Positions 2,857-61,800 of a stretch of DNA of 64,000 nucleotides are shown piece by piece; positions within the stretch are counted from its first letter, which is position 1, and the number at the start of each line of letters is the position of its first letter. The notes below the pieces were generated by a model. It was not told where the DNA came from. It made no database searches and worked only from the letters and a program-made list of their open reading frames with translations. A program made the translations under genes and the position numbers. The DNA comes from Candidatus Pacearchaeota archaeon (GTDB taxonomy: Archaea; Nanobdellota; Nanobdellia; Pacearchaeales; GW2011-AR1). Location of the stretch: the NCBI GenBank assembly GCA_050303855.1, contig JBNLCO010000006.1, positions 1,820 to 65,819 of the forward strand, in the 5' to 3' direction.

Positions 2857-4258
2857 AAAACTAACAAAAAAAGAGGCAGAATTAATCGAAAAGAAAAGAA
2901 TGAAAACGATAAAACAAAAGGCCAGAAACCTCAGTATAAAAGAAGGAATATTTGCATCCGCGAATAATTCATTCGGTGTACAATACCTCTCTCCATTTGC
3001 CATTGCAATAAATTCAAGTAATTCGCTTGTTGCAATAATGAGTTCGATTACAGGATTATTGGGCCCGTTATCCCAAATATTTGGATCTAAACTTATAGAA
3101 AAGAAAACAAGAAAAAAGGTGGTAACAAAAGGAGTTCTACTTGAGTCTATAACCTGGTTATCTTTCATAATAATAAGCATCTTATTCATAAAGGATGTAC
3201 TAAAGGAAATACTCCCTGCAATGTTCATACTATTTTTCTCTGTATATACCATATTTTTTGGATTAATTGTTCCAGGATGGTTTTCCTGGACAGGAGATAT
3301 TGTAAGTGATAAATACAGAGGCAGATGGTTTGCAAAAAGAAACCTTCTAGTAGGATTTACTCTACTAGTTCTAACAATAGGCGCATCTTATTTCTTAGAG
3401 TATATGAAAGAAAATGAAATGGCAATGATCGGTTTCATAACACTATTTTCCCTAGCATTCATCACAAGAATTATCTGTTATAGCATATTTAAAAAAGAAT
3501 ACGAGCCCAAATTAAAAATAAAGCCAGGAAAGCATTTTTCATTTATTGAATTCATTATGAAAGCTCCAAAAACCAATTTTGGAAAGTTCTCAATATTTAG
3601 GTTATTCTTTTCGTTTACAGTTACAATTGCAAACTCACTATTAGCGGTTTATCTCTTAAGGACACTAAATATGAGTTATTCAAACTATATATTAATTCTG
3701 TTATCTGCAACATTCTTCTCGTTACTAGTAACAGAAATTTGGGGGAAAATTGCAGACAAATACGGAAATTATAAAGTCCTTGCAATAACAATGATATTAA
3801 TTCCAATAATTCCAATACTATGGATCCTAGACACTTCATTAATATATCTTATACTCGTCCCTGGACTCGTAAGGGGAATAGGTTGGGCAGGATTTAACCT
3901 TTCCTCAGGAAATTTCATATATGACAATGTATCTCAAGAAAAAAGAGGTGTTGCAGTATCATATTTCAATATGATGATGGGAATTGGAATCTTCCTTGGA
4001 GGAATAGTTGGGGCATTCCTTATAACATTCATAGATCCAACAATAGTATCTCCAATAAAGATAATATTCCTAATAAGTGCTATATCCAGCATAATGGTGG
4101 TTGCACTATTTATAGACAGAATAAAAGAAGTAAAAAACAAAAAGAAAGAAAAAGATCCAAAAGCATTTAGAAAATTCCTAATAAAAAAAATACGTCCAAC
4201 TCTTTCAGAAGAAGTACACCAAATAATGGAAATGAAGAGATATGTATGGAAAAAATAA
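2846..4258 (+). CDS. MFS-type membrane transporter.
   Basis: 470 aa with about 12 predicted hydrophobic helices arranged in two halves. Start overlaps the upstream gene by 11 nt. Confidence 0.6.
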   Translation: MKNKKLTKKEAELIEKKRMKTIKQKARNLSIKEGIFASANNSFGVQYLSPFAIAINSSNSLVAIMSSITGLLGPLSQIFGSKLIEKKTRKKVVTKGVLLESITWLSFIIISILFIKDVLKEILPAMFILFFSVYTIFFGLIVPGWFSWTGDIVSDKYRGRWFAKRNLLVGFTLLVLTIGASYFLEYMKENEMAMIGFITLFSLAFITRIICYSIFKKEYEPKLKIKPGKHFSFIEFIMKAPKTNFGKFSIFRLFFSFTVTIANSLLAVYLLRTLNMSYSNYILILLSATFFSLLVTEIWGKIADKYGNYKVLAITMILIPIIPILWILDTSLIYLILVPGLVRGIGWAGFNLSSGNFIYDNVSQEKRGVAVSYFNMMMGIGIFLGGIVGAFLITFIDPTIVSPIKIIFLISAISSIMVVALFIDRIKEVKNKKKEKDPKAFRKFLIKKIRPTLSEEVHQIMEMKRYVWKK

Positions 4259-4959
4259 ACAAAAACATATATAAAAACTCTCATCCTGAGAAAGAAATGT
4301 TCAACAAAAAAACTTGTTCTAAATGTGGAAGGAAAACGGGAAAAGATCACAATTTCTGCCATTCATGTGGAAGCATGCTAAATTCCAAAGAAAATAAGCA
4401 AGAATGGGGAATGATTGGAAAGAATGATCTAGAAGGAAGGCCTCCTCAAAATATACCTGGACTATTTGGAGGAATAAGTGGAAAGATCATTGATAAAATG
4501 ATAAATAGTACAATGAAAATGCTTGAAAAAGAAATGCAAAATAACACAAGAAATATGAACCCAAATCCAAACATAAATTCCAATTTTGAACTATATATAA
4601 ACGGAAAAAGAGTAAGTCCCGATAAAATAAAAGTGACAAATCATATGTCAAAAGAAATACCTGAAATACAGACCTCTCAAAACAAATTCTTCTCAACAGA
4701 AAAAACAAAGACTTTTGCAAATCTGCCAAAAGACGAACCAAAAACAAATCTTCGAAGACTTTCAGATAAAATAATTTATGAAATAGAACTACCGGGAGTA
4801 AAAAGTGTAGAAGATATCTCAATAGTAAAGCTTGAAAATAGCATAGAAATAAAGGCATTATCAAAAGAAAGGGCATATTCAAAAACAGTTCCTTTTGATT
4901 TAAAAATCTCAAAATACAATCTTTCTAAAGAAAAGCTTATTTTGGAGCTTTCAGAGTAA
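4246..4959 (+). CDS. Zinc-ribbon protein with a C-terminal Hsp20/alpha-crystallin-like domain.
   Basis: N-terminal CSKCG...CHSCG zinc ribbon. C-terminal IYEIELPGVKSVEDISIVKLENSIEIKALSKERAYSKTVPFDLKISKYNLSKEKLILEL resembles the archaeal sHSP ACD core (xxVDLPGVKKEDIKV...LTI...). Confidence 0.55.
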   Translation: MEKINKNIYKNSHPEKEMFNKKTCSKCGRKTGKDHNFCHSCGSMLNSKENKQEWGMIGKNDLEGRPPQNIPGLFGGISGKIIDKMINSTMKMLEKEMQNNTRNMNPNPNINSNFELYINGKRVSPDKIKVTNHMSKEIPEIQTSQNKFFSTEKTKTFANLPKDEPKTNLRRLSDKIIYEIELPGVKSVEDISIVKLENSIEIKALSKERAYSKTVPFDLKISKYNLSKEKLILELSE

Positions 4960-4976: not shown

Positions 4977-5000
4977 CAAATTAAATCTGGTTTTTACAAT

Positions 5001-5075
5001 GAGGCTATAGCTCAGTCTGGTCAGAGCATCGTCCTGATACGGCGGGGGTCCAAGGTTCAAATCCTTGTAGCCTCA
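5001..5075 (+). tRNA. tRNA-Ile (anticodon GAT).
   Basis: Hand-folded cloverleaf. Acceptor GAGGCTA/TAGCCTC. D-arm GCTC..GAGC. Anticodon stem TCGTC/GGCGG with two G-U pairs. Loop CTGATAC. T-arm CAAGG-TTCAAAT-CCTTG. Discriminator A. No encoded CCA. Confidence 0.85.
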
Positions 5076-5124
5076 TTTTCTTTCAAGAAGAAAGACTTTT
5101 AAGTATAAAGCACCTTTAGAAGAC

Positions 5125-11086: not shown

Positions 11087-11602
11087 ATGATAAAGATAAT
11101 TGTTGACAAACTTGCAAGAATAACTAAAAACAGAAAAAAGTTAGAAGAACTCTTAGAAGTCAAAGTAACCAATAGAGGAACAGAAGTCTATCTCGAAGGA
11201 TCTCCTGAAAACGAATATATTGCAGAAAAAGTAATTATGGCCTTAGATTTTGGATTCCCCTATTCCACAGTATCAGAACTAAAAACAGAAGATTTAGTGT
11301 TCGAAACACTTAACATAAAAGAATATAGCAATCAAAAGAACCTCCAAAGAGTAAGAGGTAGAATCATTGGAAAGGGGGGAAAAGTCCTAAAAACAATCTC
11401 AGATTTATCTAATTGCTATCTAGAAATAAAAGATAACAACATAGGAATAATAGGAGAGCCAGAATTCATAAAGAACGCTCAAGAAGCAATAATCTCAATA
11501 GTAAAGGGTTCTAAAATAGGAAATGTATATGCCCACCTCGAAAAGCATCAACCAAAGCCCCTAGGAGACCTCGGATTAAAGAAAAAAGAAAAGAACGCCT
11601 AA
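11087..11602 (+). CDS. KH-domain RNA-binding protein (archaeal Dim2/Pno1-like).
   Basis: GRIIGKGGK is the GxxG KH motif. Two KH-like segments and the 171-aa size fit aDim2/Pno1 homologues. Confidence 0.6.
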   Translation: MIKIIVDKLARITKNRKKLEELLEVKVTNRGTEVYLEGSPENEYIAEKVIMALDFGFPYSTVSELKTEDLVFETLNIKEYSNQKNLQRVRGRIIGKGGKVLKTISDLSNCYLEIKDNNIGIIGEPEFIKNAQEAIISIVKGSKIGNVYAHLEKHQPKPLGDLGLKKKEKNA

Positions 11603-11648
11603 GAGTGGACATAGAAACTTATAAATACTTTATAGATATTAAAAATAA

Positions 11649-12710
11649 ATGATTTCTATAAAGAAAAAATGGAGAGAGTTGCCGAAAGAAGAAAGATTAA
11701 ATATTCCTGAAAAAGAATTCAAAATATCTTCATCAAAAATAGAAAACATTAGGAAAATAAAAGACCCAAAAACAAGATTAATTGAAGCTGCAAGAATACA
11801 ATATGAAAAGTTTAGACAAATAAATTCTTACATAACAACTTGGATTGCAGGATACGGGAGTGATGTAGTAATAAGACAAAAATTTGGATCTACAAAAAAT
11901 CTTTACAAAATCTTCTTTAAAGATATTGAACATCATTCAGAAGTACATCTTTCTTGGCCAGACATAAAGAGAAGAGTAAGAATACCAAAAGAAATAACAG
12001 GAGATCTAGCGGAAGAGGTAGGAATACATATAGGAGACGGAAATCTGCAAAATGCACCAAGAAAAGATGGAATAAAATATTATGTTTACACAATTACTGG
12101 AGATTTAAAAGATGAAGAAATATATCACAAAAAGCATCTCAAAGAATTATTACATAAGATTTATGGAATAAAACCAACAATTATAGAAAGACCATCAAAA
12201 AATTCCATTGAAACAAGAATTAAGTCCAGAGCCGTGACAGAATTTAAAAAGAATATTCTAAAATTAGATTCTGGAAACAAGAAAAAAATAAAAATTCCTG
12301 GAGAAATAATGAAAAACAAAGAGTTATCAAAAAGATGTGCTGCAGGGATTATTGATACCGATTTTAGTATAACAAGTTCGATAGCAATCACAGGAAAATT
12401 AGCAAGTTTTACTATTCTTGACCAACTAGCAGAAATATTCACAAAAAACAAAATCAAGTTTAAACTAACAAAATATAAAGGATACGGAAGATTCTACATC
12501 AACAAAAAAGGAGCAATAGAAATAATAAATAAATGGAAATTAAACAATATAAAACACCTTTCAAAATATGAATGTTACATAAAATTTAGAAATACTTTCC
12601 CAAATTCAAAAACAACAGAACGAATAGCATTAATTAAAGGAAAAATAGGTCATCAAGACCTACTAGAAATATGTAATAAAAGAAGGAAATACGCCCCAGG
12701 CAGGACTTGA
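11649..12710 (+). CDS. Free-standing two-motif LAGLIDADG-family homing-endonuclease-like protein.
   Basis: Two LAGLIDADG-type motifs: AEEVGIHIGDGNL and AAGIIDTDFSI. The 3' end overlaps tRNA-Asn on the opposite strand. It is paralogous to the ORFs at 43811-44650 and 53707-54444. Confidence 0.6.
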   Translation: MISIKKKWRELPKEERLNIPEKEFKISSSKIENIRKIKDPKTRLIEAARIQYEKFRQINSYITTWIAGYGSDVVIRQKFGSTKNLYKIFFKDIEHHSEVHLSWPDIKRRVRIPKEITGDLAEEVGIHIGDGNLQNAPRKDGIKYYVYTITGDLKDEEIYHKKHLKELLHKIYGIKPTIIERPSKNSIETRIKSRAVTEFKKNILKLDSGNKKKIKIPGEIMKNKELSKRCAAGIIDTDFSITSSIAITGKLASFTILDQLAEIFTKNKIKFKLTKYKGYGRFYINKKGAIEIINKWKLNNIKHLSKYECYIKFRNTFPNSKTTERIALIKGKIGHQDLLEICNKRRKYAPGRT

Positions 12711-12779
12711 ACCTGCGACCTAACGGTATCTGTTTGGGAAATAACAGCCGTTCGCTCTAACCAACTGAGCTACCAGGGC
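12692..12779 (-). tRNA. tRNA-Asn (anticodon GTT) with a 14-nt intron at the canonical 37/38 position.
   Basis: Minus strand. Acceptor GCCCTGG/CTGGGGC. D-arm GCTC-AGTTGGTTA-GAGC. Anticodon stem AACGG/CCGTT. Loop CTGTTA, then intron TTTCCCAAACAGAT, then A. T-arm GCAGG-TTCAAGT-CCTGC. The intron pairs with the anticodon (CTGTT/AACAG), consistent with a BHB motif. Confidence 0.8.
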
Positions 12780-12854
12780 ATTAAATCTGAAGATAATTTT
12801 CTTATTTAAAGGTTTTCCCCCAAACTTTTTAACTCAAATTTTACTAACAATTCT

Positions 12855-13979
12855 ATGAAATCTCAAACAAAAAAACAAAAAGTTCTTCTAGCAATGTCTG
12901 GAGGAGTAGATTCCTCAATAGCTGCGCTAATACTAAAAAAACAAGGGTATGAAGTTATAGGTGCATTCATGAAGAATTGGTCAGATACAAAAGACCCTCT
13001 AACTGGGATATGTGCCTGGCGTGGAGAGAGAAAAATGGCAATAAAAATCGCTTCTAAATTAAACATTCCCCTAATAACCCTTGATTTTGAAAAAATCTAC
13101 AGAAAAGACGTTATTGAAAAAATGTTTGAAAAATACAAAAAAGGAATTACACCAAATCCAGATATAGATTGTAACCAAAAAATAAAATTCCCTTTATTAC
13201 TAAAAGAAGCAAAGAAACGTAAAATAGATATTATTGCTACAGGGCATTATGCCCGAGTCAAACAAAATCCTAAGACGAAGAAATACGAATTATATAGAGG
13301 TTTGGATGAATCAAAAGATCAATCGTATTTCCTATATAGAACCAAAGAATCTGAATTAAGGCACACATTATTTCCAATAGGCAACTATACAAAAAAACAA
13401 ATCCGAGAAATAGCAGAAAAGAATCATTTTCCAAATTACAATAAAAAAGGAACAGTAGGAATTTGTTTCATAGGGAAAATAAATTTCAAAGATTTCCTTA
13501 GAAAAAAGATCCCCCCTAAACCAGGAAAAATATTAGATCCTGAAGGAAACATTATAGGAAAACATGATGGAATATTTTATTACACAATAGGTGAAAGACT
13601 TGGCCCAAGATACGGATTTGAAGTAGAAAGACAAAAGAATTCTCATGAAAAAATTGAAAGATGGTACGTAGCAAGGAAGGACATAAAGAAAAATACAATC
13701 ATTGCAGCACCAAAAGACCATCTTTTAAATTTCCGTAAAAATATAATTGTAAAGAATTTCTATTTAATATCCGATAAGAAAACAACTTTTGAGAAGAAAA
13801 AAACAAAAGTCTTATCTAGAATAAGGCATGTTGGAGAATTACTTCCAAGCATATTGGAATACAAAAATAAAAAATGGAAGATCACACTTAAAGAATCAAT
13901 AACAGGGGTATCTGAAGGACAAGCTGTTGTTTTATACCAAGGAGAGAAATGTATTGGTGGAGGAGAAATCTCCTTTTGA
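12855..13979 (+). CDS. mnmA: tRNA-specific 2-thiouridylase MnmA/TrmU family.
   Basis: PP-loop SGGVDSS near the N-terminus. Overall MnmA length and downstream conserved blocks (DxxxGHYAR). Confidence 0.75.
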   Translation: MKSQTKKQKVLLAMSGGVDSSIAALILKKQGYEVIGAFMKNWSDTKDPLTGICAWRGERKMAIKIASKLNIPLITLDFEKIYRKDVIEKMFEKYKKGITPNPDIDCNQKIKFPLLLKEAKKRKIDIIATGHYARVKQNPKTKKYELYRGLDESKDQSYFLYRTKESELRHTLFPIGNYTKKQIREIAEKNHFPNYNKKGTVGICFIGKINFKDFLRKKIPPKPGKILDPEGNIIGKHDGIFYYTIGERLGPRYGFEVERQKNSHEKIERWYVARKDIKKNTIIAAPKDHLLNFRKNIIVKNFYLISDKKTTFEKKKTKVLSRIRHVGELLPSILEYKNKKWKITLKESITGVSEGQAVVLYQGEKCIGGGEISF

Positions 13980-43778: not shown

Positions 43779-43851
43779 GGCTGCATAGCTCAGTTGGTAG
43801 AGCGCAAGTCTCATGAGCTTGAGGTCCTGAGTTCGAATCTCAGTGCAGCCA
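43779..43851 (+). tRNA. tRNA with CAT anticodon (elongator Met or Ile2-type).
   Basis: Acceptor GGCTGCA/TGCAGCC. D-arm GCTC-AGTTGGTA-GAGC. Anticodon stem CAAGT/GCTTG. Loop CTCATGA. T-arm CTGAG-TTCGAAT-CTCAG. Lacks the three G-C pairs of initiator tRNA. Confidence 0.85.
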
Positions 43852-44650
43852 TATCTTTCAAAATTACCCGATTAAACAGTTCCTTTTTAGAAGAAAGATA
43901 TTTCCGATCATATCTCATAAATGCCTGGAATTTTTTCAGTTGTTTAGGATTAACAAATCCGATATTTTTATAAAACAATATCAAATTCTTTTTCCCATTA
44001 AACTGCACACGAAACTTTTTGAAGATTTTAATAAATCCCCTCTCATCCTTATTCCTTTTGCATTCATACATGTTACCATTAAAACCATTCTCGATCAAGA
44101 ATTCATGAATTTGTCTTATCAAATCATGAGCAATCATATGGACCTCCAATCTTGGATAAAATTTGTTAGGATTTTTTGTTAAAACCAAACTACCATCCGT
44201 AGCAAAAATTCCTTGAATAACATATTTGACAAGATCTCTCCTATGGAATTCTCCAGGAATAATTATCTTTGTTCCTTTCTTACCAATAGGAAATCCTAAA
44301 GAATTAATTTTGCAAAAAAGACTTTTATCAGAGAAGAACAATTCAACAGTTCCTTTTTCAGGCCTTCTAATAATTCTCAAAGGTTTCATCCCAGATCGCA
44401 AAGAATTTATTATTGGAGCTACAAATTCTTTAATAAAAGGAATATCATCGTAGTAATTACAAACGATTGATATGCCAAATATCGTTCTTTTTTGTTTTGT
44501 AACATATTTTGACAAACATCCATCTCCCAACATTATTCCATAAAGTAGAGCAAATCTTTCATCATGAGACAACTTATTGATATCAAACATCACAACAAAT
44601 ACAAAACAAAAAATAATATAATATTTTAGAACTATTCTATAATTAAACAC
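43811..44650 (-). CDS. Free-standing two-motif LAGLIDADG-family protein (paralogue 2).
   Basis: Motifs LLYGIMLGDGCL and IQGIFATDGSL. The 3' end overlaps tRNA-CAT on the opposite strand by about 40 nt. Confidence 0.6.
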   Translation of the reverse strand: MFNYRIVLKYYIIFCFVFVVMFDINKLSHDERFALLYGIMLGDGCLSKYVTKQKRTIFGISIVCNYYDDIPFIKEFVAPIINSLRSGMKPLRIIRRPEKGTVELFFSDKSLFCKINSLGFPIGKKGTKIIIPGEFHRRDLVKYVIQGIFATDGSLVLTKNPNKFYPRLEVHMIAHDLIRQIHEFLIENGFNGNMYECKRNKDERGFIKIFKKFRVQFNGKKNLILFYKNIGFVNPKQLKKFQAFMRYDRKYLSSKKELFNRVILKDMAALRFELRTSSS

Positions 44651-52630: not shown

Positions 52631-53539
52631 ATGACAGAGAAAATAAAAATAACATTTCTAGGAACATCTGCAAGCATTCCTACTTTGAAGCGAAATCACA
52701 CCGCAATACTTCTTCAATACAAAAAAGAGAATATTCTAATAGATTGTGGAGAAGGAACTCAGAGACAATTCCGTAAAGCTAAACTAAACCCTGGAAAATT
52801 AACAAAAATTCTAATAACTCACTGGCATGGAGATCATGTCCTAGGTCTCCCCGGATTATTCCAAACCCTAGCTCTAAGCGAATATAATAAAGAACTAAGA
52901 ATATTTGGTCCAAAGAATACAAAAGAATATCTAAAAAACTTCATAAGAATATTCGTTCCCGTTTTTAGATTTAAAGCAAAAATAGAAGAAGTAACAAAAA
53001 AACAAAAATTCTTTGAGGACTCTGAGCTATACTTAGAATCTGAAATAATGGAACATGGAATTCCCACAAACGCATATAATTTTGTAATAAAAGATAAACT
53101 TAGAATTGACAAAAACAAACTAAAGAAAGCAAAAATTCCTCACGGAAAGCATTTATCCGAATTAAAGAATGGAAAGAACATAAAAGTCAAGGGAAAAACT
53201 TACAAGGCAAAAGATTTCACCTATTTAGAAAAGGGAAAGAAAATCTCATTCATAATTGATACGGTTTTCAACAAGAAAATTGAAAAATTTGTAGAAGACT
53301 CTGATCTATTAATTTGCGAAAGTAGCTTCGATGACACTGAATCAGAAACTGCAAAGGAACACAAACACATGACTTCAGGACAAGCAGGACAAATTGCAAA
53401 ACGTGCCAATGTCCAAAAACTTATTCTAACTCATATTTCACAACGTTACGAAACAAGACTTGATGAATTATTAAAAAATGCAAAGAAACATTTCAAGAAT
53501 TCTTCTATAGTAAATGATTTTGACACAATTGAGATATAA
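52631..53539 (+). CDS. rnz: Ribonuclease Z (tRNA 3' endonuclease).
   Basis: MBL motif HWHGDH. N-terminal FLGTSASIPT. 302 aa, short-form RNase Z. Confidence 0.85.
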   Translation: MTEKIKITFLGTSASIPTLKRNHTAILLQYKKENILIDCGEGTQRQFRKAKLNPGKLTKILITHWHGDHVLGLPGLFQTLALSEYNKELRIFGPKNTKEYLKNFIRIFVPVFRFKAKIEEVTKKQKFFEDSELYLESEIMEHGIPTNAYNFVIKDKLRIDKNKLKKAKIPHGKHLSELKNGKNIKVKGKTYKAKDFTYLEKGKKISFIIDTVFNKKIEKFVEDSDLLICESSFDDTESETAKEHKHMTSGQAGQIAKRANVQKLILTHISQRYETRLDELLKNAKKHFKNSSIVNDFDTIEI

Positions 53540-53546
53540 AGATAAA

Positions 53547-53672
53547 TGCCCCGGACAGGATTCGAACCTGCGACTTCCAGCTTACTTTCCAGACTTAACT
53601 GGATAGAAGGTTTGCCTAAATCTCATTTTATTCAATTTATCTGGCACTCTATCCAGGCTGAGTTACCGGAGC
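53547..53672 (-). tRNA. tRNA gene with an unusually long (about 40-46 nt) non-canonical insertion in the anticodon region. Isotype unresolved.
   Basis: Minus strand. Acceptor GCTCCGG/CCGGGGC. D-arm ACTC-AGCCTGGATA-GAGT. T-arm GCAGG-TTCGAAT-CCTGT. Discriminator A. Between the D-arm and T-arm there are about 73 nt containing CCAGA...TCTGG and a duplicated CCAG. No 7-nt loop with U33 can be formed by a single canonical 37/38 intron, so the intron is either non-canonical or multiple. Confidence 0.55.
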
Positions 53673-53706
53673 ATATTATAATCATATAAAATAGGGTTTA
53701 AAAGTT

Positions 53707-54444
53707 TTACATTTCATAAAGACTTTCTGGAATTAATTCATTTTGCAAGATCAATTCTCTTTGTTTAAGAGAAGAAGGGGTTGGACAAAAACCATGTTTT
53801 TTCCAGACAAGATATTTCGTAAATTTAGAGTAATTATTGAAACCTATAGAATCCATCCATTTATTTATTCTTTCTGGACCCCTAACAGCAATCCGATAAA
53901 CATCTGCCTCATTAACCTTCTTCTTTGAAGAAAAGTGAACAGAATGGCCAATGTTCAAGAAATCCAACAAAAAACTCAAATCAAAAATAATTTGCTTAGA
54001 AACAACACCAATAAAAATCCTCGGATAAGTATGATATTTTCTCTTAAAAGAAGAATATCCTTTTTCATAACGTTTCATAAAATTTAAACAACCATCACAA
54101 TCAGCAAAACCCCTTATAAAAGCCGAAATTATGTTCTTGTCTTTAGAAAATAAAATTTCATGTGGAATTTTTACCGAATAGGTCTTTCTACGAGTAAAAC
54201 CAAAATCCTTGAAAATCTTAATTATCTCCTTCCTACAGATGTAAAACCCATAAACAGAATTGCTTTCTTTCTCATGTGCATTTACATTTATTCCAAATAC
54301 TTTAGAAAACAAAGGGCAAACAACCCTATCATAGTATTCCTTATCTTCATGAATATTGCCCCACATACTAATATGATTCTCCTGCAAATTCCCATCTGCT
54401 GCAAACATTCCAAATATTTCCGAAAGACCTTCTGTAATCTCCAT
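53707..54444 (-). CDS. Free-standing two-motif LAGLIDADG-family protein (paralogue 3).
   Basis: Motifs LSEIFGMFAADGNL and FIRGFADCDGCL. It lies immediately upstream, on the same strand, of the unusual intron-containing tRNA. Confidence 0.6.
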   Translation of the reverse strand: MEITEGLSEIFGMFAADGNLQENHISMWGNIHEDKEYYDRVVCPLFSKVFGINVNAHEKESNSVYGFYICRKEIIKIFKDFGFTRRKTYSVKIPHEILFSKDKNIISAFIRGFADCDGCLNFMKRYEKGYSSFKRKYHTYPRIFIGVVSKQIIFDLSFLLDFLNIGHSVHFSSKKKVNEADVYRIAVRGPERINKWMDSIGFNNYSKFTKYLVWKKHGFCPTPSSLKQRELILQNELIPESLYEM

Positions 54445-55125: not shown

Positions 55126-55836
55126 ATGAACAAAGCTACAATTTTAGGAGGATTAGCAACAATCTTAGCTCTAACAAGTTGTTCGATAGAAAATAAAATA
55201 CAAGAAAATCCAAAACCAAGAGCAACTTATCAAGAAAACGGACTTGCAAACATCTCAATACCAAAATATGAAAAGATTGGAGAGATAGGCGAACTAAAAA
55301 TTCAAGGTTTTAACAAATATTTTATACAAAAGATAGAAATAAGTGATACTGCAAATAATGAAGAAATGCTCCCTTTCATAATATATGATTTCAACAAGGA
55401 AAACAAAAAACTAGTCAAACAAAACATTAATCCAGACAACGAATACATTTTCTTAAAAGCAAGGGCAGAAACACCTTCCAAAAACAACCTTATTCAAGAA
55501 CTAGAAATACTGGGATATCGTTCAAAAAATCCTAGCCTCCAATCAGATTCAACAATAAGGGTTTACACCATAGACAATATCCAAAGGGCCTTAAAACCGT
55601 TCAGCCTATTAAAAACAGATTACATATATCCTTTAGTAACAACCAGCGATGAAAAAGCAGAAGGAAAAACACCCTTTTATGTAATCCCTGCTAACAACAA
55701 CATAGAAATCTCTGAAGAAAACGAAAGTGCACTAATAAAAACTCCTGGAGAAATATACAGAGGGATCAATCCAAAAATAGCAACTCCCTTTGAAAATATA
55801 AGAAAATCGGTTATAGATTTAAGAGATTTCTTCTAA
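55126..55836 (+). CDS. Putative secreted lipoprotein, 236 aa.
   Basis: N-terminal signal with lipobox-like LALTSC. Confidence 0.45.
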   Translation: MNKATILGGLATILALTSCSIENKIQENPKPRATYQENGLANISIPKYEKIGEIGELKIQGFNKYFIQKIEISDTANNEEMLPFIIYDFNKENKKLVKQNINPDNEYIFLKARAETPSKNNLIQELEILGYRSKNPSLQSDSTIRVYTIDNIQRALKPFSLLKTDYIYPLVTTSDEKAEGKTPFYVIPANNNIEISEENESALIKTPGEIYRGINPKIATPFENIRKSVIDLRDFF

Positions 55837-58800
55837 AGTTCACTCCCAGATTTAGCACCTTTAGATTGCAAATAACTAACAACATCAACATTATTAAGTT
55901 GAACAGCTCGATCTAACGCTGTTTCTCCAGAATCACTTTGGGTATTAACCTCTGCACCATTTTCAACAAGATATTTTACAATGTCAACATCTCCCTTAAT
56001 AGAGGCATGTATAAGAGCGGTCCAACCTTCTATACCATCTTTAACACTAACATCTGCACCATTTTCAACAAGATATTTTACAAGGTCAAGATGTCCAAGA
56101 CGAGATGCATAAATCAAAGGAGTCCATCCATCATCATCTTTAACATTGATATCAGCTCCTTGTTCAATCAAGGACATTATCTCAGCCCTATTATTGTCAT
56201 CCAGACCTCTATAAAGAGCATCAACTAACTGTTGATCAAGATTATCTAAACCAATTCCCTCAATACAAGTTTTAGTCAAGCCTGGTTCCTGAACACAATT
56301 CTTGCCTAATTTGTAACCAATTGATGCGCAAAGATTAGCATCGCAATAATTAGAAGTGCCACTTGTAGAACTTATACTTGTTATACAATCACTACACTGT
56401 GTTGCACTAGAATAAACGTCCCTTTGTTCAGCAGAAAGAGTATTCCAATTCGGAATATCAGAAGTGTCGTCTTGAGCAGGTTGTGCTTCTTTACAACTCA
56501 AGAACCCATATTCACAAGTCTTACCAATTCTTTCCCCAATATCTAAGCATTCAGTCTCACCACAGAAGTTACCCAAACCAGACCCACAATCATTACACTG
56601 AGTTGCTTCATATATTGATCTTAATTCTCTATCTGTGTACCCTTCTCCTGCACGACAATTGTATATAGGAGTATCACTTATATCTGCACCCTTTGCATAA
56701 TACTGACAAGAAGCGCCTAATTTTTTACCAATAACTGCACATAAATTACTATCACAATCATCAGGATAACTCTCACAATAAACGCAACTAGGAGCATCAT
56801 AAAGTATTGAAATTTGTTTTGAAGTAAACCTGCCCAAATCGGTGCTTCCTAAATTCTCACTCTCCCAAGAATCCAATTTTTGAGAATCAACATCCTGTGT
56901 AGACTCAATTATTGAATTATCCGACAAATCATAAAGCAGGGCAGCCCCCTCAAAATAAGTCTTATCAACAAGGCTCACGGTAACAGATTGTATTGGATCT
57001 GAAGGAATTGAACCTACAACCTTAGCTTCACCTGAAACCAAAACCTGACTAGCAGCTTTATTAAATGAAACGTCCGAAACATCAAACCAATAACGTGGAT
57101 CAATACCCCTAGTAGGATTAAATTCCCATACACCTTCTTTAAATCTAAAGTAATAAGGCTGTTCATTAAAAGAAAGATCTACCTTAAAGATACCTTCACT
57201 ATTCAAATTAACATTCTCTGTTTTCAAATCCGGACTAGAACTAATGAAATTAATTCTACCAAACAAAACACCCCCACTGAAACTAAGAACATTATTTATA
57301 ATAACTCCAAGACCCTCTATGTAGTTGCCATTACGTTCTTGAAGAGAAGTAATTATTTGTCTATTCACCTCCAATGAAACTGCCTTACCTTCAATACTAT
57401 CGCTAACAGAATACCAAAAATTATCTTTGGGATTAAACCAATACCAACCTCCCTCTTGGAACTTATAGTGAACATTTCTATAACTAGTTCCATCTTGGAA
57501 TTCAATATCAGGAGAAGAATATCCTGAAGAAAACTTGGCTAAAACACTACTAACTCCCGTACCACCAGTACCCGTAGAAATAGTTGTGCCACTTAATTGA
57601 GGAGATCTATATAGATAAACAGGATGAACATCAGAAGTTAAATACAAATTCGTGTATCTGTAAGTATTACAATATTGTTCCTCATTAACTTTACCCTTAT
57701 TAAGAGTTCTAACATACTTATTATCTTCTCCACAAACAAGCCCATTTTCATCTTTCTCATCGATCTTCAAATCTGCACCATTCCAATCAAAGATTCTAGC
57801 ATATCCAGTAACAGAAGTAGTTTCTTCATTTGTGGCAGGATTAATCCAAGAAATAAATATAACCGAGTGAGGCAATTTAGAGGCCCAAACAATATCCAAC
57901 TGGTCTCCAGGTTGAAGAGATGCTAGTTTAGTATCATAGTTATCTTCTCCGATCTTATTATAACCTGTTCCAACTTGGAAAATAACACTTCCTTGAGAAG
58001 TTTTATCTACGCCAATTGTAACTTTTGAATTTGAATCCTTTAAGGTATAGGTGGCCCCAGATTTATCTGCATAAGAAGGAACAGCAGAAACCCCTGCATA
58101 TTGGTATACATAAACAGCAGCACTATAGCACGCATAATCTCCAGAGAAAGCCAAACCCCCATCTAATTTTTCTGCAGCTTTCAATACTCTTTGCCGAGCA
58201 TCATCAATTGAAGAAATATCACTAGGAACTTGAGGCAAGATGCAAACGTTTCCTTGGTCATCAACAATTGTTCCAAGGTCCACACTATTTGTTTTTATTT
58301 GTTCAATCTTACCAAATTCCAAACCAGAAAGATCTCCATAAGCCAAACCTCTCAAGAAATAAAGTTCAGCTTTTTGATTACTAAAGAATACCTTATCCAA
58401 AATATTATTTATTATTTCTATCTTCTTAGAAGAATCAGATTCTTTCTTAACGTCTCTTAAAGTCTGACTATAATTCTGATTGTTAACATAATCTCCAGAA
58501 TTTACCAAATCATCAAGATAACTCTGAGCGGTGTCATTTAAAACAGAATTCTCAACATCTAAGGATTTAATAGCATCTTTAACGGAATCAGTATCTAGCC
58601 AACAACCAACGTTTGTATCTGTACAGTAACCCACTTTTCTCCATCTTGCATTTTCAGTCCCATCCTTAGCATCCGTTCCAATACCAGGGCTGTTTGTAGC
58701 ACAAACTCTTGTAATACCTTTTTGGTACAGCTCAGGGTTGATTAAACCTTCAGCCACATCTTGAAGGTTAGGATTCAATAAGCTATACAAACTAGCACTT

Positions 58801-61800
58801 CCAGAAACACATTCTTCTTCTGTTGTAACCCCCGAAGTAGTTTGTTCCTGCAAATACAAATCATTAACATAATTAACTGCAAAAGAAGTTGACACTTTTC
58901 CGAAACCACACTCTTCCTGATTATTTACAACAATACATAATTGGGTATATCCTGAAGGTGCAGTAAAGTCAACTGTATCTGAAGCATAATCTCCTACTGA
59001 AACGTAACCGGAATCAACTACTCTATTAAGCGCGCTATCTTGATAGAAACTCCCACTTCCACCCTTAAGATAAACTCTGTAATAAGCTCCAGAATCTTGT
59101 CCAGAATAAATGTGGTAATAAACCTTATACTGTGAGGTGGGAGGATTTGTTGCGGTAGTAAATGGAATCTCATCAAAGCTTCCTGTAAATTGCGGAGGCG
59201 AACGTGGAGTAGTTAAACTATCTAATAATTCAGCACTAGAAGGGTAAACCGTAGATACATAACTTTTACAAACCGCAGTTCCAGCTTCATCAACACTTCT
59301 AACTTTGAAAGCATTATAAGATTCAGAAGCATAATATTGTTTAAAGTAGTCTAAAGAATCTTTTGCATTATCCCATGCACTCTGTAATCCCAGATATTCT
59401 CCTCCACCACGGGTGTTCTCTCCTGAAATTAATCCAATTAATTTTGGAACAGCTACTTTAGCCAAAGGTATTGATTGTCTCCAAAAGAATTCACAAGCAT
59501 AAACACTATGTATCTCGTCACAAACACCAATAGTTTCTCCACTCTCCAAATTTTCCTGCAAACAATCCCTATATGATTCCTGGACACTTATCCATGAATC
59601 CAAACCAGCTTGAACACCTGTTGTACAAACCGGAACCTTTATCCCCTCTTTATAATTTGGTGCACAGAGAGCAATACTTCCAACTATTCCTGTCTGAACA
59701 ACATCCTTAACAGGGTAAGCCCCTCCAAAATCACATCTTGAGCTAGGACAAACAACAGGATCACAAACATTAAACAATAAATTACATTCTTTAGGAGACA
59801 TGAAATCTTGACACTGAACTGCGGGAGTTTCTACCGCAGGTTCTCCAACTTTGTAATTCTGACCGTTGATTCTAACAGAATTAACTCCATTCTTATAAGC
59901 TCTCTGAGCCTTCTCAATCGAATCAACAGCATCAGTTACAAGCCTTGTAGTTTTACTTTCACTCAATCCAGCAAATTGATTATAAACAGTTCCAGGAACC
60001 CCCACATTAATTTGTTGGCAAATATCATCTCCTAAACCAGAACTAGAAAATTCTTCCAAACCATTAGATCCAACGTTACATAACCAGAAACTATTCAATC
60101 TACCTGAAGCATCATAAGCAGTAATCTGACTTCCAACAGGAAGCTTAGGTTTAGTTGCAGCATACCAACCATCATTTGTATCTAAAGGAACAATCGCAGG
60201 ATAACCTTTGTAAGGGTCTTCCTCATAATACCTTACTTCTGGATTCTTATAACTATTCTCATATGAACCTTCATCATATTTATCAAAAGCTAAACTCAGA
60301 GGGTTTACTTTATCATTAACCATAACCAACTGACCATTCAAAGGATTTAACTGGAATGTTCTAGTAACAATATAATCATCATTCAAAACCAAAAGATATT
60401 CCCTATTAGTAGCTATATCAACAACCGGATAAACCAATTCATTATCCGCAATAAGATAATCTGCAGGGTTTCCAGGGAAGATAATCGAATTTGGAAGTAA
60501 AACAACACTCATCCCTCCAGGATATGAACTTTCAACATCTGCCCAAGTCTTTAAATCAGAAACCTGAATTCTCTTTATCTTATCATCTGAAGAAATAAAT
60601 CCTCCCTGGTGACCCTCTAGAGAATACTTGTCAAAGAAAGAAGTTCTTTCTACAAAATTCCCTGCGTTATTTTGAACGTCATAAAGCAAAGAGTAAAGTG
60701 TTTGGCTGTAAGACTTCTTGCTCTCAGCATCATTTGTACTCTTAACTAAAGTTGCATAAAGCTCTATATCTTTAAGATCATCTATGCTATAGATACCACT
60801 TTCCCAACCCTGGTAACTTAACAAATTCTTAATTTCATCAATCTCAAGAGGTTCATTTTTACCAGTAGGATCGACGAAAGTATTACCCAAGCCCACTAAA
60901 GAATCAGATCCAATCTGAGAATAATCCTTCATAAATTCCTGTTGATCAACAACCTTATTTGTTAAAGTTCCTGTTTGCAAAGAATCAGCTTCAAGTTGTT
61001 TTATTCTTTCATTCTGAGTTTGTATTGTATTGAAAACTTCATCAACTTGAGAATCTATCTCATCAGAATTCTCAAGGAAACAATCATCTAGAGAAATATA
61101 ATTCCCTTTACTTACTTCACTAGCACAAAAATCATTCCACCCTCCAGAACTACGCATGACCTTCTGTCTCGCTATAGATTTACCATCCGAGTTAGCCAAG
61201 AAATTCTTAGCAGTTAAAACAGCTCCTGTTGCTAAACAAACCTTAGCACTAGCTTCATTAAACGTATTGAGAGCATTTGAAGCCTTTTCAAGATCAGAAA
61301 TTGCATTACTTAAACTATCAACCCTATTCTCAATCTGTTCGTCAGAAAGTTGTATTGAACGTTTCTCTATGCCAATATTAAATCCAAATTCAGATTCAGA
61401 ATTCTGATAATTAAAACTTGGAACCACTGAAACCCTTGCAACCTTTTCTATGTTAGTATCAGTAAGGGTTAAACTATACCCTCCTCCAATACCTCTTGTT
61501 TCATCAATATCAAAAGTATAGCTATTCAAAGAAAATAATTGATTTGCAAGATTTTCTCCAGAAACATAAACCGTAACCCTTGCAGAATCTTCATCCACCG
61601 AATCTAGTTTAATATATTCTGAACCAGAAGCATTATCTTTTAAATTCAAATATACAACTTTATCCTTTCTTAATTGATAAGTCTGGATCTTACCGTCCGA
61701 ACTTCTTATCAAAACTTCTGCACCGTATTCTTGGTAAGTAGGCTCTTTTATACCTTCAAAGGAAATTGTTTTTATCTCTCCGTTAACTAAAACATCTCTA

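Follow-up and report, generated by a model that had tools for sequence, protein, structure and literature searches.

Free-standing LAGLIDADG genes at the edges of tRNA genes in DPANN archaea: a candidate radiation of homing endonucleases

Free-standing homing endonucleases are known mainly from phages and organelles, and the LAGLIDADG enzymes of archaea from rRNA introns and inteins. Here we describe three free-standing LAGLIDADG genes, open reading frames (ORFs) 1, 2, and 3, each of which lies beside a tRNA gene in a 64,000-nucleotide stretch of a Candidatus Pacearchaeota archaeon genome (assembly GCA_050303855.1, contig JBNLCO010000006.1, positions 1,820 to 65,819 of the forward strand; hereafter, the window). 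Their nearest functional analogue, alike in being a free-standing endonuclease gene among tRNA genes, is SegB of phage T4, a GIY-YIG homing endonuclease gene inserted between tRNA genes; in relatives that lack the endonuclease, SegB targets the tRNA region, and through it the tRNA genes linked to it are inherited preferentially (PMC2988022).

Collaborative, or trans, homing offers a second point of reference. In the systems of cyanophage F-CphI at psbA and of T4 mobE with the nrdB intron, a free-standing endonuclease gene adjoins the gene whose intron-less form it cuts, the intron protects, and the two are inherited together, an arrangement proposed as a route by which endonucleases enter introns (PMC6083498, PMC2790892, PMC2988022). 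A 2014 review of tRNA introns, in which homing endonucleases go unmentioned, credits Randau and Soll with the proposal that such introns shield tRNA genes against integrating elements (PMC4090602), and neither LAGLIDADG nor homing appears in a 2026 survey of 208 complete Nanobdellota genomes (bioRxiv 10.64898/2026.05.13.725050). In the searchable literature on DPANN and LAGLIDADG, and on free-standing LAGLIDADG proteins and tRNA genes, we found no published description of the present arrangement. The pattern set out below suggests that selfish endonuclease genes have radiated with tRNA genes as their landing sites, a radiation that appears not to have been described before.

The three proteins and their tRNA genes

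A first-pass annotation of the window had placed the three ORFs at 11649-12710(+), 43811-44650(-), and 53707-54444(-) and had described them as mutually divergent, each with two LAGLIDADG-type motifs, and all of this was confirmed. Our results support the assignment of all three as LAGLIDADG endonuclease-fold proteins, with two central LAGLIDADG helices in a pseudo-symmetric alpha-beta-beta-alpha-beta-beta-alpha double domain. An acidic residue stands at the C-terminal end of each LAGLIDADG helix in all three families, and the catalytic Asp pairs are invariant among the aligned homologues (D130/D238 of ORF1 in 27/27, D23/D132 of ORF2 in 30/30, D17/D117 of ORF3 in 30/30). In the ORF1 family, A121, E122, E123, G125, I126, H127, G129, D130, and G131 of motif 1 and C230, G233, D236, T237, D238, and F239 of motif 2 are each unchanged in 27/27 sequences.

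The profile search proposed as a check succeeded for ORF2 (29.3 bits) and ORF3 (26.3 bits), both above the cut-off (22.5) of Pfam LAGLIDADG_3 (PF14528), and failed for ORF1, which has no match in Pfam or NCBIfam and no sequence match in the PDB even with a profile of its own family; ORF1 is tied to ORF2 and ORF3 through phmmer (E 2e-6 and 1e-3, within the window) and structure only. Among themselves the three give phmmer E-values of ~1e-6 to 0.5 within the window, where phmmer finds no further LAGLIDADG paralogue. The word paralogous, first applied to them, is loose for what are distant members of one superfamily, each protein having its own orthologous family and its own tRNA. PHROGs returns a generic "endonuclease" match for ORF3 only, and no PADLOC defence model matches any of the three at E <= 0.01. 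A profile search of 1.84 billion representative proteins yielded 979 clusters (50% identity) at E <= 1e-10, most of them of 240-280 amino acids (aa). The ORF1 family has ~77 full-length homologues of uniform length (42-60% identity), the ORF2 family at least 378 homologues, and the ORF3 family 107 (46-71% identity), with a profile that matches the TliVMA intein endonuclease (E 1e-12). The N-terminal domain peculiar to the ORF1 family shows weak helix-turn-helix-like similarity and is possibly an extra DNA-binding module. The true start of ORF2 is likely the ATG at 44590, which gives the 259-aa database protein.

ARAGORN with introns allowed finds exactly seven tRNA genes in the window, as first counted, and six are confirmed by Rfam. 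When the three ORFs are placed at random, all of them abut a tRNA gene in 7 of 2,000,000 trials (3.5e-6), which upholds the claim that the three pairings are unlikely to be due to chance. The tail-to-tail overlaps reported earlier were also seen. ORF1 and tRNA-Asn(GUU) share 19-20 nucleotides (nt) at their 3' ends, the TGA stop of ORF1 being the complement of the T-loop TTCAA; ORF2 covers 41 nt (43811-43851) of the 3' part of the convergent tRNA(CAU), its stop being the complement of the anticodon loop (TCATGA) at tRNA positions 33-35. The last six codons and stop of ORF1 and the last 41 nt of ORF2 are thus tRNA sequence, as the annotation had recognized. ORF3 does lie immediately upstream of a tRNA gene, ending 34 nt from it on the same strand; the "long aberrant intron" ascribed to that gene is mistaken, since it is a tRNA-Arg(UCU) with two introns whose spliced model ARAGORN accepts as tRNA-Arg(TCT).

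The comparison was extended to 153 DPANN loci, which were found via the ORF and are named L001 onward (ORF2-family loci are L074-L153); together with the window, their six-frame ORFs were scanned with a hidden Markov model of all these proteins. Of the 163 LAGLIDADG ORFs in this set, 131 have a tRNA gene no more than 100 nt away, or 80% against the 7% expected from the density of other tRNAs in the same loci (binomial P ~1e-113); the exceptions are mostly contig ends, inteins in other genes, and tRNAs missed by the tools. The 3' end of the ORF faces the tRNA in 126 of 135 pairs, meeting the tRNA 3' end in 93 and its 5' end in 33, and the ORF 5' end is nearest in only six, with three further cases scored by ARAGORN as an ORF within an intron. 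Clustering by family separates the ORFs by tRNA: Asn(GUU) in 14/14, CAU in 73/80 (the rest mostly contig ends), and Arg(UCU) in 7/7, with a large further cluster mainly at Arg(GCG) and His(GUG), where the ORF overlaps the 5' part of the tRNA on the same strand, and single cases at Cys(GCA) in L154 and Ala(CGC) in L103. Family-specific tRNA placement is conserved across ~130 related loci.

Within the ORF1 family, a convergent tRNA-Asn(GUU) stands at the 3' end of the ORF in all 14 loci (13 species-representative genomes and the window); nine of these tRNAs were called by ARAGORN, two of them wrongly as Tyr, and five were read by eye because of their several non-canonical introns. In the ORF2 family, represented by 80 metagenomic loci, the ORF ends at a convergent tRNA in 74 of the 75 loci that could be evaluated, essentially always CAU, with an overlap of 0-1, 8, 20, 42, or ~60 nt that varies because the reading frame entering the tRNA differs. 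For the ORF3 family, tRNA-Arg(UCU) is at the 3' end in the six contexts fetched, on the same strand in five and convergent in one (L156). ARAGORN calls of intron-containing Tyr(gta), Ser(aga), and Asn(att) tRNAs beside ORF1 and ORF2 relatives proved to be miscalled Asn(GTT) and CAT tRNAs.

In nearly every case the 3' end of the ORF touches the tRNA and the stop codon falls within the tRNA sequence, which supplies it because the ORF is butted against the tRNA boundary: TGA comes from the T-loop TTCAA or the anticodon TCATGA, and TAG from the D-loop when ORF and tRNA share a strand. C-terminal tails of the ORF2 family such as MAALGVEPRTSSS or MATPRVELGTSCS are translations of antisense tRNA. We considered whether such tails are functional and rejected the idea, as the tRNA fixes their sequence, they change with the reading frame, and they are predicted to be disordered; in the AlphaFold2 model of ORF2 (predicted local distance difference test, pLDDT, 88.5) the tRNA-encoded residues 249-259 fall below 50, and residues 351-353 of ORF1 stand at ~50. 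In all three families, the ORF-tRNA pair is kept as a unit yet inverted relative to conserved neighbours, and no inverted repeats were found bounding these cassettes. Such inversions were seen among window positions 11087-13979, L002-L005, and L007, and among L154-L157; the neighbours are KH and MnmA genes for ORF1, HIT for ORF2-like ORFs, and an RNase Z/LSm/S8e/TFIIB block for ORF3.

Some neighbouring features deserve mention in their own right. Directly beyond tRNA-Asn lies a gene for a bacterial-type, MnmA-like tRNA 2-thiouridylase (12855-13979 (+)), which L002-L005 and L007 likewise keep beside the ORF1-tRNA-Asn pair. A metallo-beta-lactamase gene of the RNase Z type, whose product would act in tRNA 3'-end processing (52631-53539 (+)), ends 8 nt from the 3' end of tRNA-Arg(UCU), and this neighbourhood recurs in L154-L157. 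The tRNA(CAU) beside ORF2, for which elongator Met and Ile2 are the candidate identities, has G37 and the loop CTCATGA, with the perfect palindrome CTCATGAG; among intron-less ORF2-linked CAU tRNAs (L074-L153), G37 occurs in 34/60 and the usual A37 in 24/60, and G37 beside U36 is unusual in a tRNA that reads A-starting codons. The window itself (G+C ~32%) has the archaeal traits of intron-containing tRNAs and TATA-like boxes upstream of tRNA genes, among them tRNA-Asn, the boxes being a by-eye reading, and its genes have homologues in metagenome-assembled genomes (MAGs) of Woesearchaeota, Pacearchaeota, and Nanoarchaeota. A scan for sigma-70 promoters and terminators was uninformative in this archaeal host. 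Default ARAGORN labelled tRNA-Asn as Thr and missed tRNA-Arg(UCU), both corrected by the intron-allowing run. A single 8-kb ORF of 2691 aa (55833-63908 (-)) probably encodes a DPANN surface protein; L157 has a similar giant ORF with Laminin_G/Big domains after its ORF3 orthologue.

Table 1. Coordinates of the ORFs, motifs, and tRNA genes (window positions unless a locus is named)
Feature	Position	Strand	Remarks
ORF1, free-standing LAGLIDADG protein, 353 aa	11649..12710	+	N-terminal helical domain and double-motif core
ORF1 N-terminal domain, ~115 aa	11649..11993	+	all-helical, family-specific
ORF1 LAGLIDADG motif 1	12009..12047	+	AEEVGIHIGDGNL; catalytic D130
ORF1 LAGLIDADG motif 2	12336..12368	+	CAAGIIDTDFS; catalytic D238
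Overlap zone ORF1/tRNA-Asn	12691..12710		last 6 ORF1 codons and TGA, complement of acceptor, T-stem, and T-loop; read from sequence
tRNA-Asn(GUU)	12691-12780	-	convergent with ORF1; ARAGORN -i; Rfam tRNA 59.2 bits; spliced model accepted as tRNA-Asn
tRNA-Asn intron, 14 nt	12728..12741	-	canonical 37/38 position; ARAGORN intron tttcccaaacagat
ORF2, free-standing LAGLIDADG protein, 259 aa (likely start)	43811..44590	-	motifs 44513-44551, 44186-44221
tRNA(CAU)	43779-43851	+	ARAGORN label Met; intron-less; convergent with ORF2
ORF3, free-standing LAGLIDADG protein, 245 aa	53707..54444	-	motifs 54385-54420, 54085-54123
tRNA-Arg(UCU)	53546-53673 (ARAGORN -i); 53547-53672 (Rfam, 42.5 bits)	-	two introns
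tRNA-Arg(UCU) introns	~53611-53640; ~53583-53603	-	anticodon stem (~30 nt); 37/38 (~21 nt)
tRNA-Ile	5000-5076		ARAGORN -i
tRNA-Arg(TCG), tRNA-Leu(TAG), tRNA-Cys			ARAGORN -i
LAGLIDADG ORF of L154	84-944	+	reads through whole antisense tRNA-Cys c[858-930]
LAGLIDADG ORF of L103	4242-4973	-	runs into 5' end of tRNA-Ala(CGC) 4191-4264

Introns of the linked tRNAs and intron-borne relatives

A search for such proteins inside tRNA introns had been suggested for the genome at hand, and it is among the related loci that close relatives were found there. At L055, a relative with a LAEETGIHIGDG motif fills the anticodon-stem intron of tRNA-Asn(GUU), starting with an ATG where exon meets intron and stopping at a TAA within the anticodon loop CTGTTAA; the motif RTLAEETGIHIGDG of this ORF resembles LAEEVGIHIGDG of ORF1. 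L025 (tRNA-Thr) and L039 (tRNA-Lys) have ORF-filled introns of the same kind, with a closing helix around the intron. These three are the verified ORF-in-intron loci, L055 among them although ARAGORN did not score it so, and ARAGORN accepts their spliced models as canonical tRNAs. No group I signature was found in the three introns at E <= 0.01, and they are therefore probably protein-spliced. The 1419-nt "intron" that ARAGORN reports at L066 is false: a related ORF there runs on the same strand into a complete, three-intron tRNA-Asn and stops in its D-loop. Taken with the ORF1 loci and L055, this means that tRNA-Asn hosts related ORFs at its 5' flank, at its 3' flank, and in its intron.

The tRNA-Asn genes linked to ORF1 orthologues are themselves unusually interrupted, 13 of the 14 having an intron and seven more than one, at 37/38, in the anticodon stem, in the T-loop, or in the D-loop, with group I introns at 35/36 in two. 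In the window, the anticodon of tRNA-Asn folds as paired with the 14-nt intron. The two group I introns, ~200 nt long (L003:5124-5315 (-) and L004:5093-5291 (-); RF00028, 81 bits; ~35/36), come from Nanoarchaeota/Woesearchaeota MAGs with ORF1 orthologues. Archaeal group I introns have been reported in rRNA genes only (PMC6125680), and Patescibacteria have group I introns in tRNA-Asn at 35/36 (PMC13011429); the shared site hints at exchange between these two episymbiont groups. In L001, L006, L008, L011, and L013, the tRNA-Asn lies 300-400 nt downstream of the ORF1 orthologue and carries two to approximately five introns (D-loop, anticodon stem, 37/38, T-loop, and possibly acceptor stem), and both ARAGORN and Rfam miss these genes. 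Part of the first intron of the window tRNA-Arg(UCU) is complementary to the D-loop region.

By ARAGORN, introns interrupt 47 of 135 ORF-linked tRNAs against 12 of 55 others, a weak enrichment with a biased baseline, since tRNAs with non-canonical introns are missed, and we claim enrichment for tRNA-Asn only. Most ORF2-linked CAU tRNAs and some Arg(UCU) tRNAs are intron-less, among the latter the orthologues of the window gene in L154, L155, and L083. The introns of tRNA-Asn fit an arms race or collaborative homing, although not as a general rule.

It is tempting to go further and suppose that tRNA-targeting LAGLIDADG endonucleases were a main driver of tRNA-gene fragmentation in DPANN archaea, with introns at many positions selected as immunity and then repeatedly entered by flank-borne endonuclease genes through collaborative homing to give mobile, protein-spliced tRNA introns. 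We put this forward tentatively, as a possible but rather doubtful extension. If it were true, the ORF1/tRNA-Asn system would capture every stage in nature, from the flank-borne ORF (the window, L066) through the intron-borne ORF (L055) to small residual introns in the anticodon stem, T-loop, and D-loop and group I introns at 35/36, and the question of why archaeal tRNA genes are so interrupted would become directly testable.

Homing and its alternatives

We consider it reasonably probable that ORF1-ORF3 are free-standing homing-endonuclease genes of a DPANN radiation at tRNA genes in which each family keeps to one tRNA, the case being weakest for ORF1 itself. Other families are paired with Arg(GCG), His(GUG), Cys, Ala(CGC), and further tRNAs. 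The element would be essentially a bare ORF inserted at the very edge of a tRNA gene, with its 3' end at the tRNA 3' end (convergent) or 5' end (same orientation), and some relatives occupy a tRNA intron. The enzyme would recognize a long site, part of it conserved tRNA sequence, and cut there in ORF-less alleles of its cognate tRNA locus; repair of the double-strand break from the ORF-bearing allele would then carry over the ORF and, by co-conversion, the tRNA allele linked to it. Immunity of the resident allele would come from interruption of its site by the insertion itself and/or by tRNA introns. Here we infer cleavage, the target site, immunity, and the present-day mobility of ORF1.

The invariant Asp residues, the intron-borne relatives, sporadic presence at some tRNAs, and an ORF-tRNA block younger than its surroundings are the indirect evidence that favours a homing lifestyle. 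The tRNA-Cys gene has an ORF in L154 and none in the window, L155, or L083; tRNA-Ala(CGC) has one in L103 and none in L109, L134, or L085, and in L109 a tRNA-Ala(GGC) stands 3 nt upstream of tRNA-Ala(CGC), where L103 has the ORF. In L083 the tRNA-Arg(UCU) is intron-less and no ORF separates it from tRNA-Cys, and the locus shares a promoter block (AAAACTTTTAAAC) with the window, where the block directly follows the ORF3 stop. The empty alleles that the first-pass annotation had proposed to look for thus exist for tRNA-Cys and tRNA-Ala(CGC), in sister families, and none was found for tRNA-Asn among loci that were themselves located through the ORF. At least one ORF-tRNA block is clearly much younger than its flanks: between L078 and L079, of the ORF2 family, it has 91.7% DNA identity against 75.3% for the colinear flanking gene, and the proportion of synonymous differences (pS) is 0.20 in the ORF and 0.54 in the flank (0.45 and 0.65 for L137/L139). 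Over 82 locus pairs, the pS of the ORF is more than 0.1 below that of its flanks in 21 and more than 0.1 above it in one. Pairs of the ORF1 family are too divergent for this test. Frameshifted copies of the ORF occur in L006, L013, and L030, and the cohesion of the ORF-tRNA pair through inversions in all three families likewise counts in favour of mobility.

Several observations weigh against homing. Most of the pairs behind the pS tally are near saturation, they are not independent, and the clearest of them were noticed as outliers. The "empty" tRNA-Arg site of L083 is a weak case, its contig ending 3 nt after the tRNA, and no ORF-less tRNA-Asn or tRNA(CAU) allele was sampled because all loci were found through the ORF, which tells particularly on ORF1. 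Pseudogenes are few, below what a classic cycle of invasion and decay predicts, and the three family alignments found no copies in 2.9 million viral contigs and hence no obvious vehicle of spread. L007 has an intron-less tRNA-Asn beside an intact ORF, so that intron-based immunity is not general. Finally, ORF1 orthologues are 45-53% identical, in step with their housekeeping neighbours (~50% for MnmA), partly retain the KH/MnmA neighbourhood, and keep a strongly conserved extra N-terminal domain. ORF1 looks like an old, mostly vertically inherited resident, and its divergence pattern, neighbourhood, and N-terminal domain fit a host-retained gene equally well. The homing interpretation already offered in the first-pass annotation is supported in part, agreeing with the fold, the free-standing state, the tRNA-specific placement, and the tRNA-made ORF ends, and agreeing less well with the seemingly vertical residence of ORF1.

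These points bear on the strongest alternative, that the proteins are domesticated and retained for a host function tied to the adjacent tRNA gene, which we judge unlikely, if well worth weighing. Possible roles are a sequence-specific DNA-binding factor or roadblock at the tRNA gene end, a chaperone (maturase) of pre-tRNAs with many introns, and a guard nuclease against elements that integrate into tRNA genes, their classic sites. Domestication would account for the uniform length, 42-60% identity, and conserved N-terminal domain of ORF1 orthologues and for their divergence matching that of neighbouring housekeeping genes, as well as for the near-universal linkage of ORF2 to tRNA(CAU) (74/75 evaluable loci), a ratio of nonsynonymous to synonymous substitution rates (dN/dS) of ~0.1-0.2, and the lack of viral carriers. 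The catalytic Asp pairs are, however, invariant in all three families, whereas these residues are gone from domesticated LAGLIDADG proteins, WhiA and several maturases among them. A host factor that acts in trans would need no physical fusion to the gene of its substrate, and the patchy presence at tRNA-Cys and tRNA-Ala and the intron-borne relatives also speak against domestication. LAGLIDADG maturases are a known precedent and would suit the introns in 13/14 ORF1-linked tRNA-Asn genes and the group I introns of L003 and L004, but such a role cannot be general because many ORF2- and ORF3-linked tRNAs are intron-less. Nor do the three proteins match any known defence family.

It is very unlikely that the ORFs are still intron-encoded, in unrecognized introns or between the halves of split or permuted tRNA genes. 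Introns filled by relatives do occur (L055, L025, L039), and linked DPANN tRNAs do carry several non-canonical introns that ARAGORN and Rfam miss, but all three window tRNAs are complete beside, not around, the ORF, ORF1 and ORF2 run antisense to their tRNAs, neither repeats of tRNA halves nor exon remnants occur upstream of the window ORFs, and the 1419-nt intron of L066 is false. Less probable still is that they are cargo of an integrated mobile element or provirus with a tRNA attachment site, their adjacency arising from integrase chemistry. In archaea tRNA genes are frequent attachment sites, and SSV-type integrase genes overlap the tRNA once the element has integrated. The literature also describes tRNA genes that serve as attB sites (PMC4090602). 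Against this, housekeeping genes lie directly against the ORFs (a KH-domain gene ends 46 nt upstream of ORF1, a HIT gene is 5 nt from ORF2, and RNase Z adjoins tRNA-Arg), neither an integrase nor a direct repeat of the tRNA 3' part is present, a single gene makes up the whole unit in ~130 loci, and the viral contigs scanned contain no relatives. Chance is close to negligible as an explanation, and so is mere inheritance of a gene order in which nothing ties ORF and tRNA together mechanistically: many ORF1 loci do come from related Woesearchaeota with partly shared neighbours, but the window simulation (3.5e-6), the 80% adjacency against 7% expected across phylum-level diversity, the existence of at least eight families each with its own tRNA, and the persistence of the pair through inversions and changes of neighbour all speak for a real association.

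Significance and relation to known systems

The homing endonucleases proposed here would form a large cellular radiation, with ~1,000 clusters in public data and each lineage fused to the boundary of one tRNA. If active, they would join flank-borne to intron-borne endonuclease genes in a natural series, the route by which mobile introns have been proposed to arise; they would be a concrete agent of selection behind the puzzling abundance of tRNA introns in archaea; and they would add compact, monomeric meganucleases that target tRNA genes. Interruptions often hide the linked tRNA genes from standard tools, which may explain "missing" tRNAs in DPANN surveys (e.g., bioRxiv 10.64898/2026.05.13.725050).

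Among archaeal enzymes, the structural kin of the three proteins are I-DmoI, I-Tsp061I, PI-PfuI, and the TliVMA intein endonuclease, but these reside inside rRNA introns and inteins, whereas the window ORFs stand outside both and beside tRNAs, and ORF1 adds an N-terminal domain of ~115 aa. WhiA, a bacterial transcription factor with the LAGLIDADG fold, lacks the catalytic acidic residues and has a C-terminal helix-turn-helix domain; in contrast, no member of the ORF1-ORF3 families has lost either Asp, and ORF1 carries its extra domain at the N-terminus. SegB differs in being a GIY-YIG rather than a LAGLIDADG enzyme, in residing in a phage rather than a cellular chromosome, and in being a single case rather than one of a set of tRNA-specific families; nor has a fusion of the ORF end with the tRNA boundary, as in the DPANN ORFs, been described for it. 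The collaborative systems of F-CphI and mobE consist of phage genes, group I introns, and HNH or EndoVII-type enzymes, whereas the DPANN ORFs are LAGLIDADG genes of archaeal chromosomes with mostly bulge-helix-bulge (BHB)-type, protein-spliced tRNA introns, and many of the linked tRNAs are intron-less. The likeness to collaborative homing is closest at tRNA-Asn, where introns interrupt 13 of the 14 ORF1-linked genes and where flank-borne (ORF1 family, L066) and intron-borne (L055) ORFs with closely similar motifs occur at the same tRNA.

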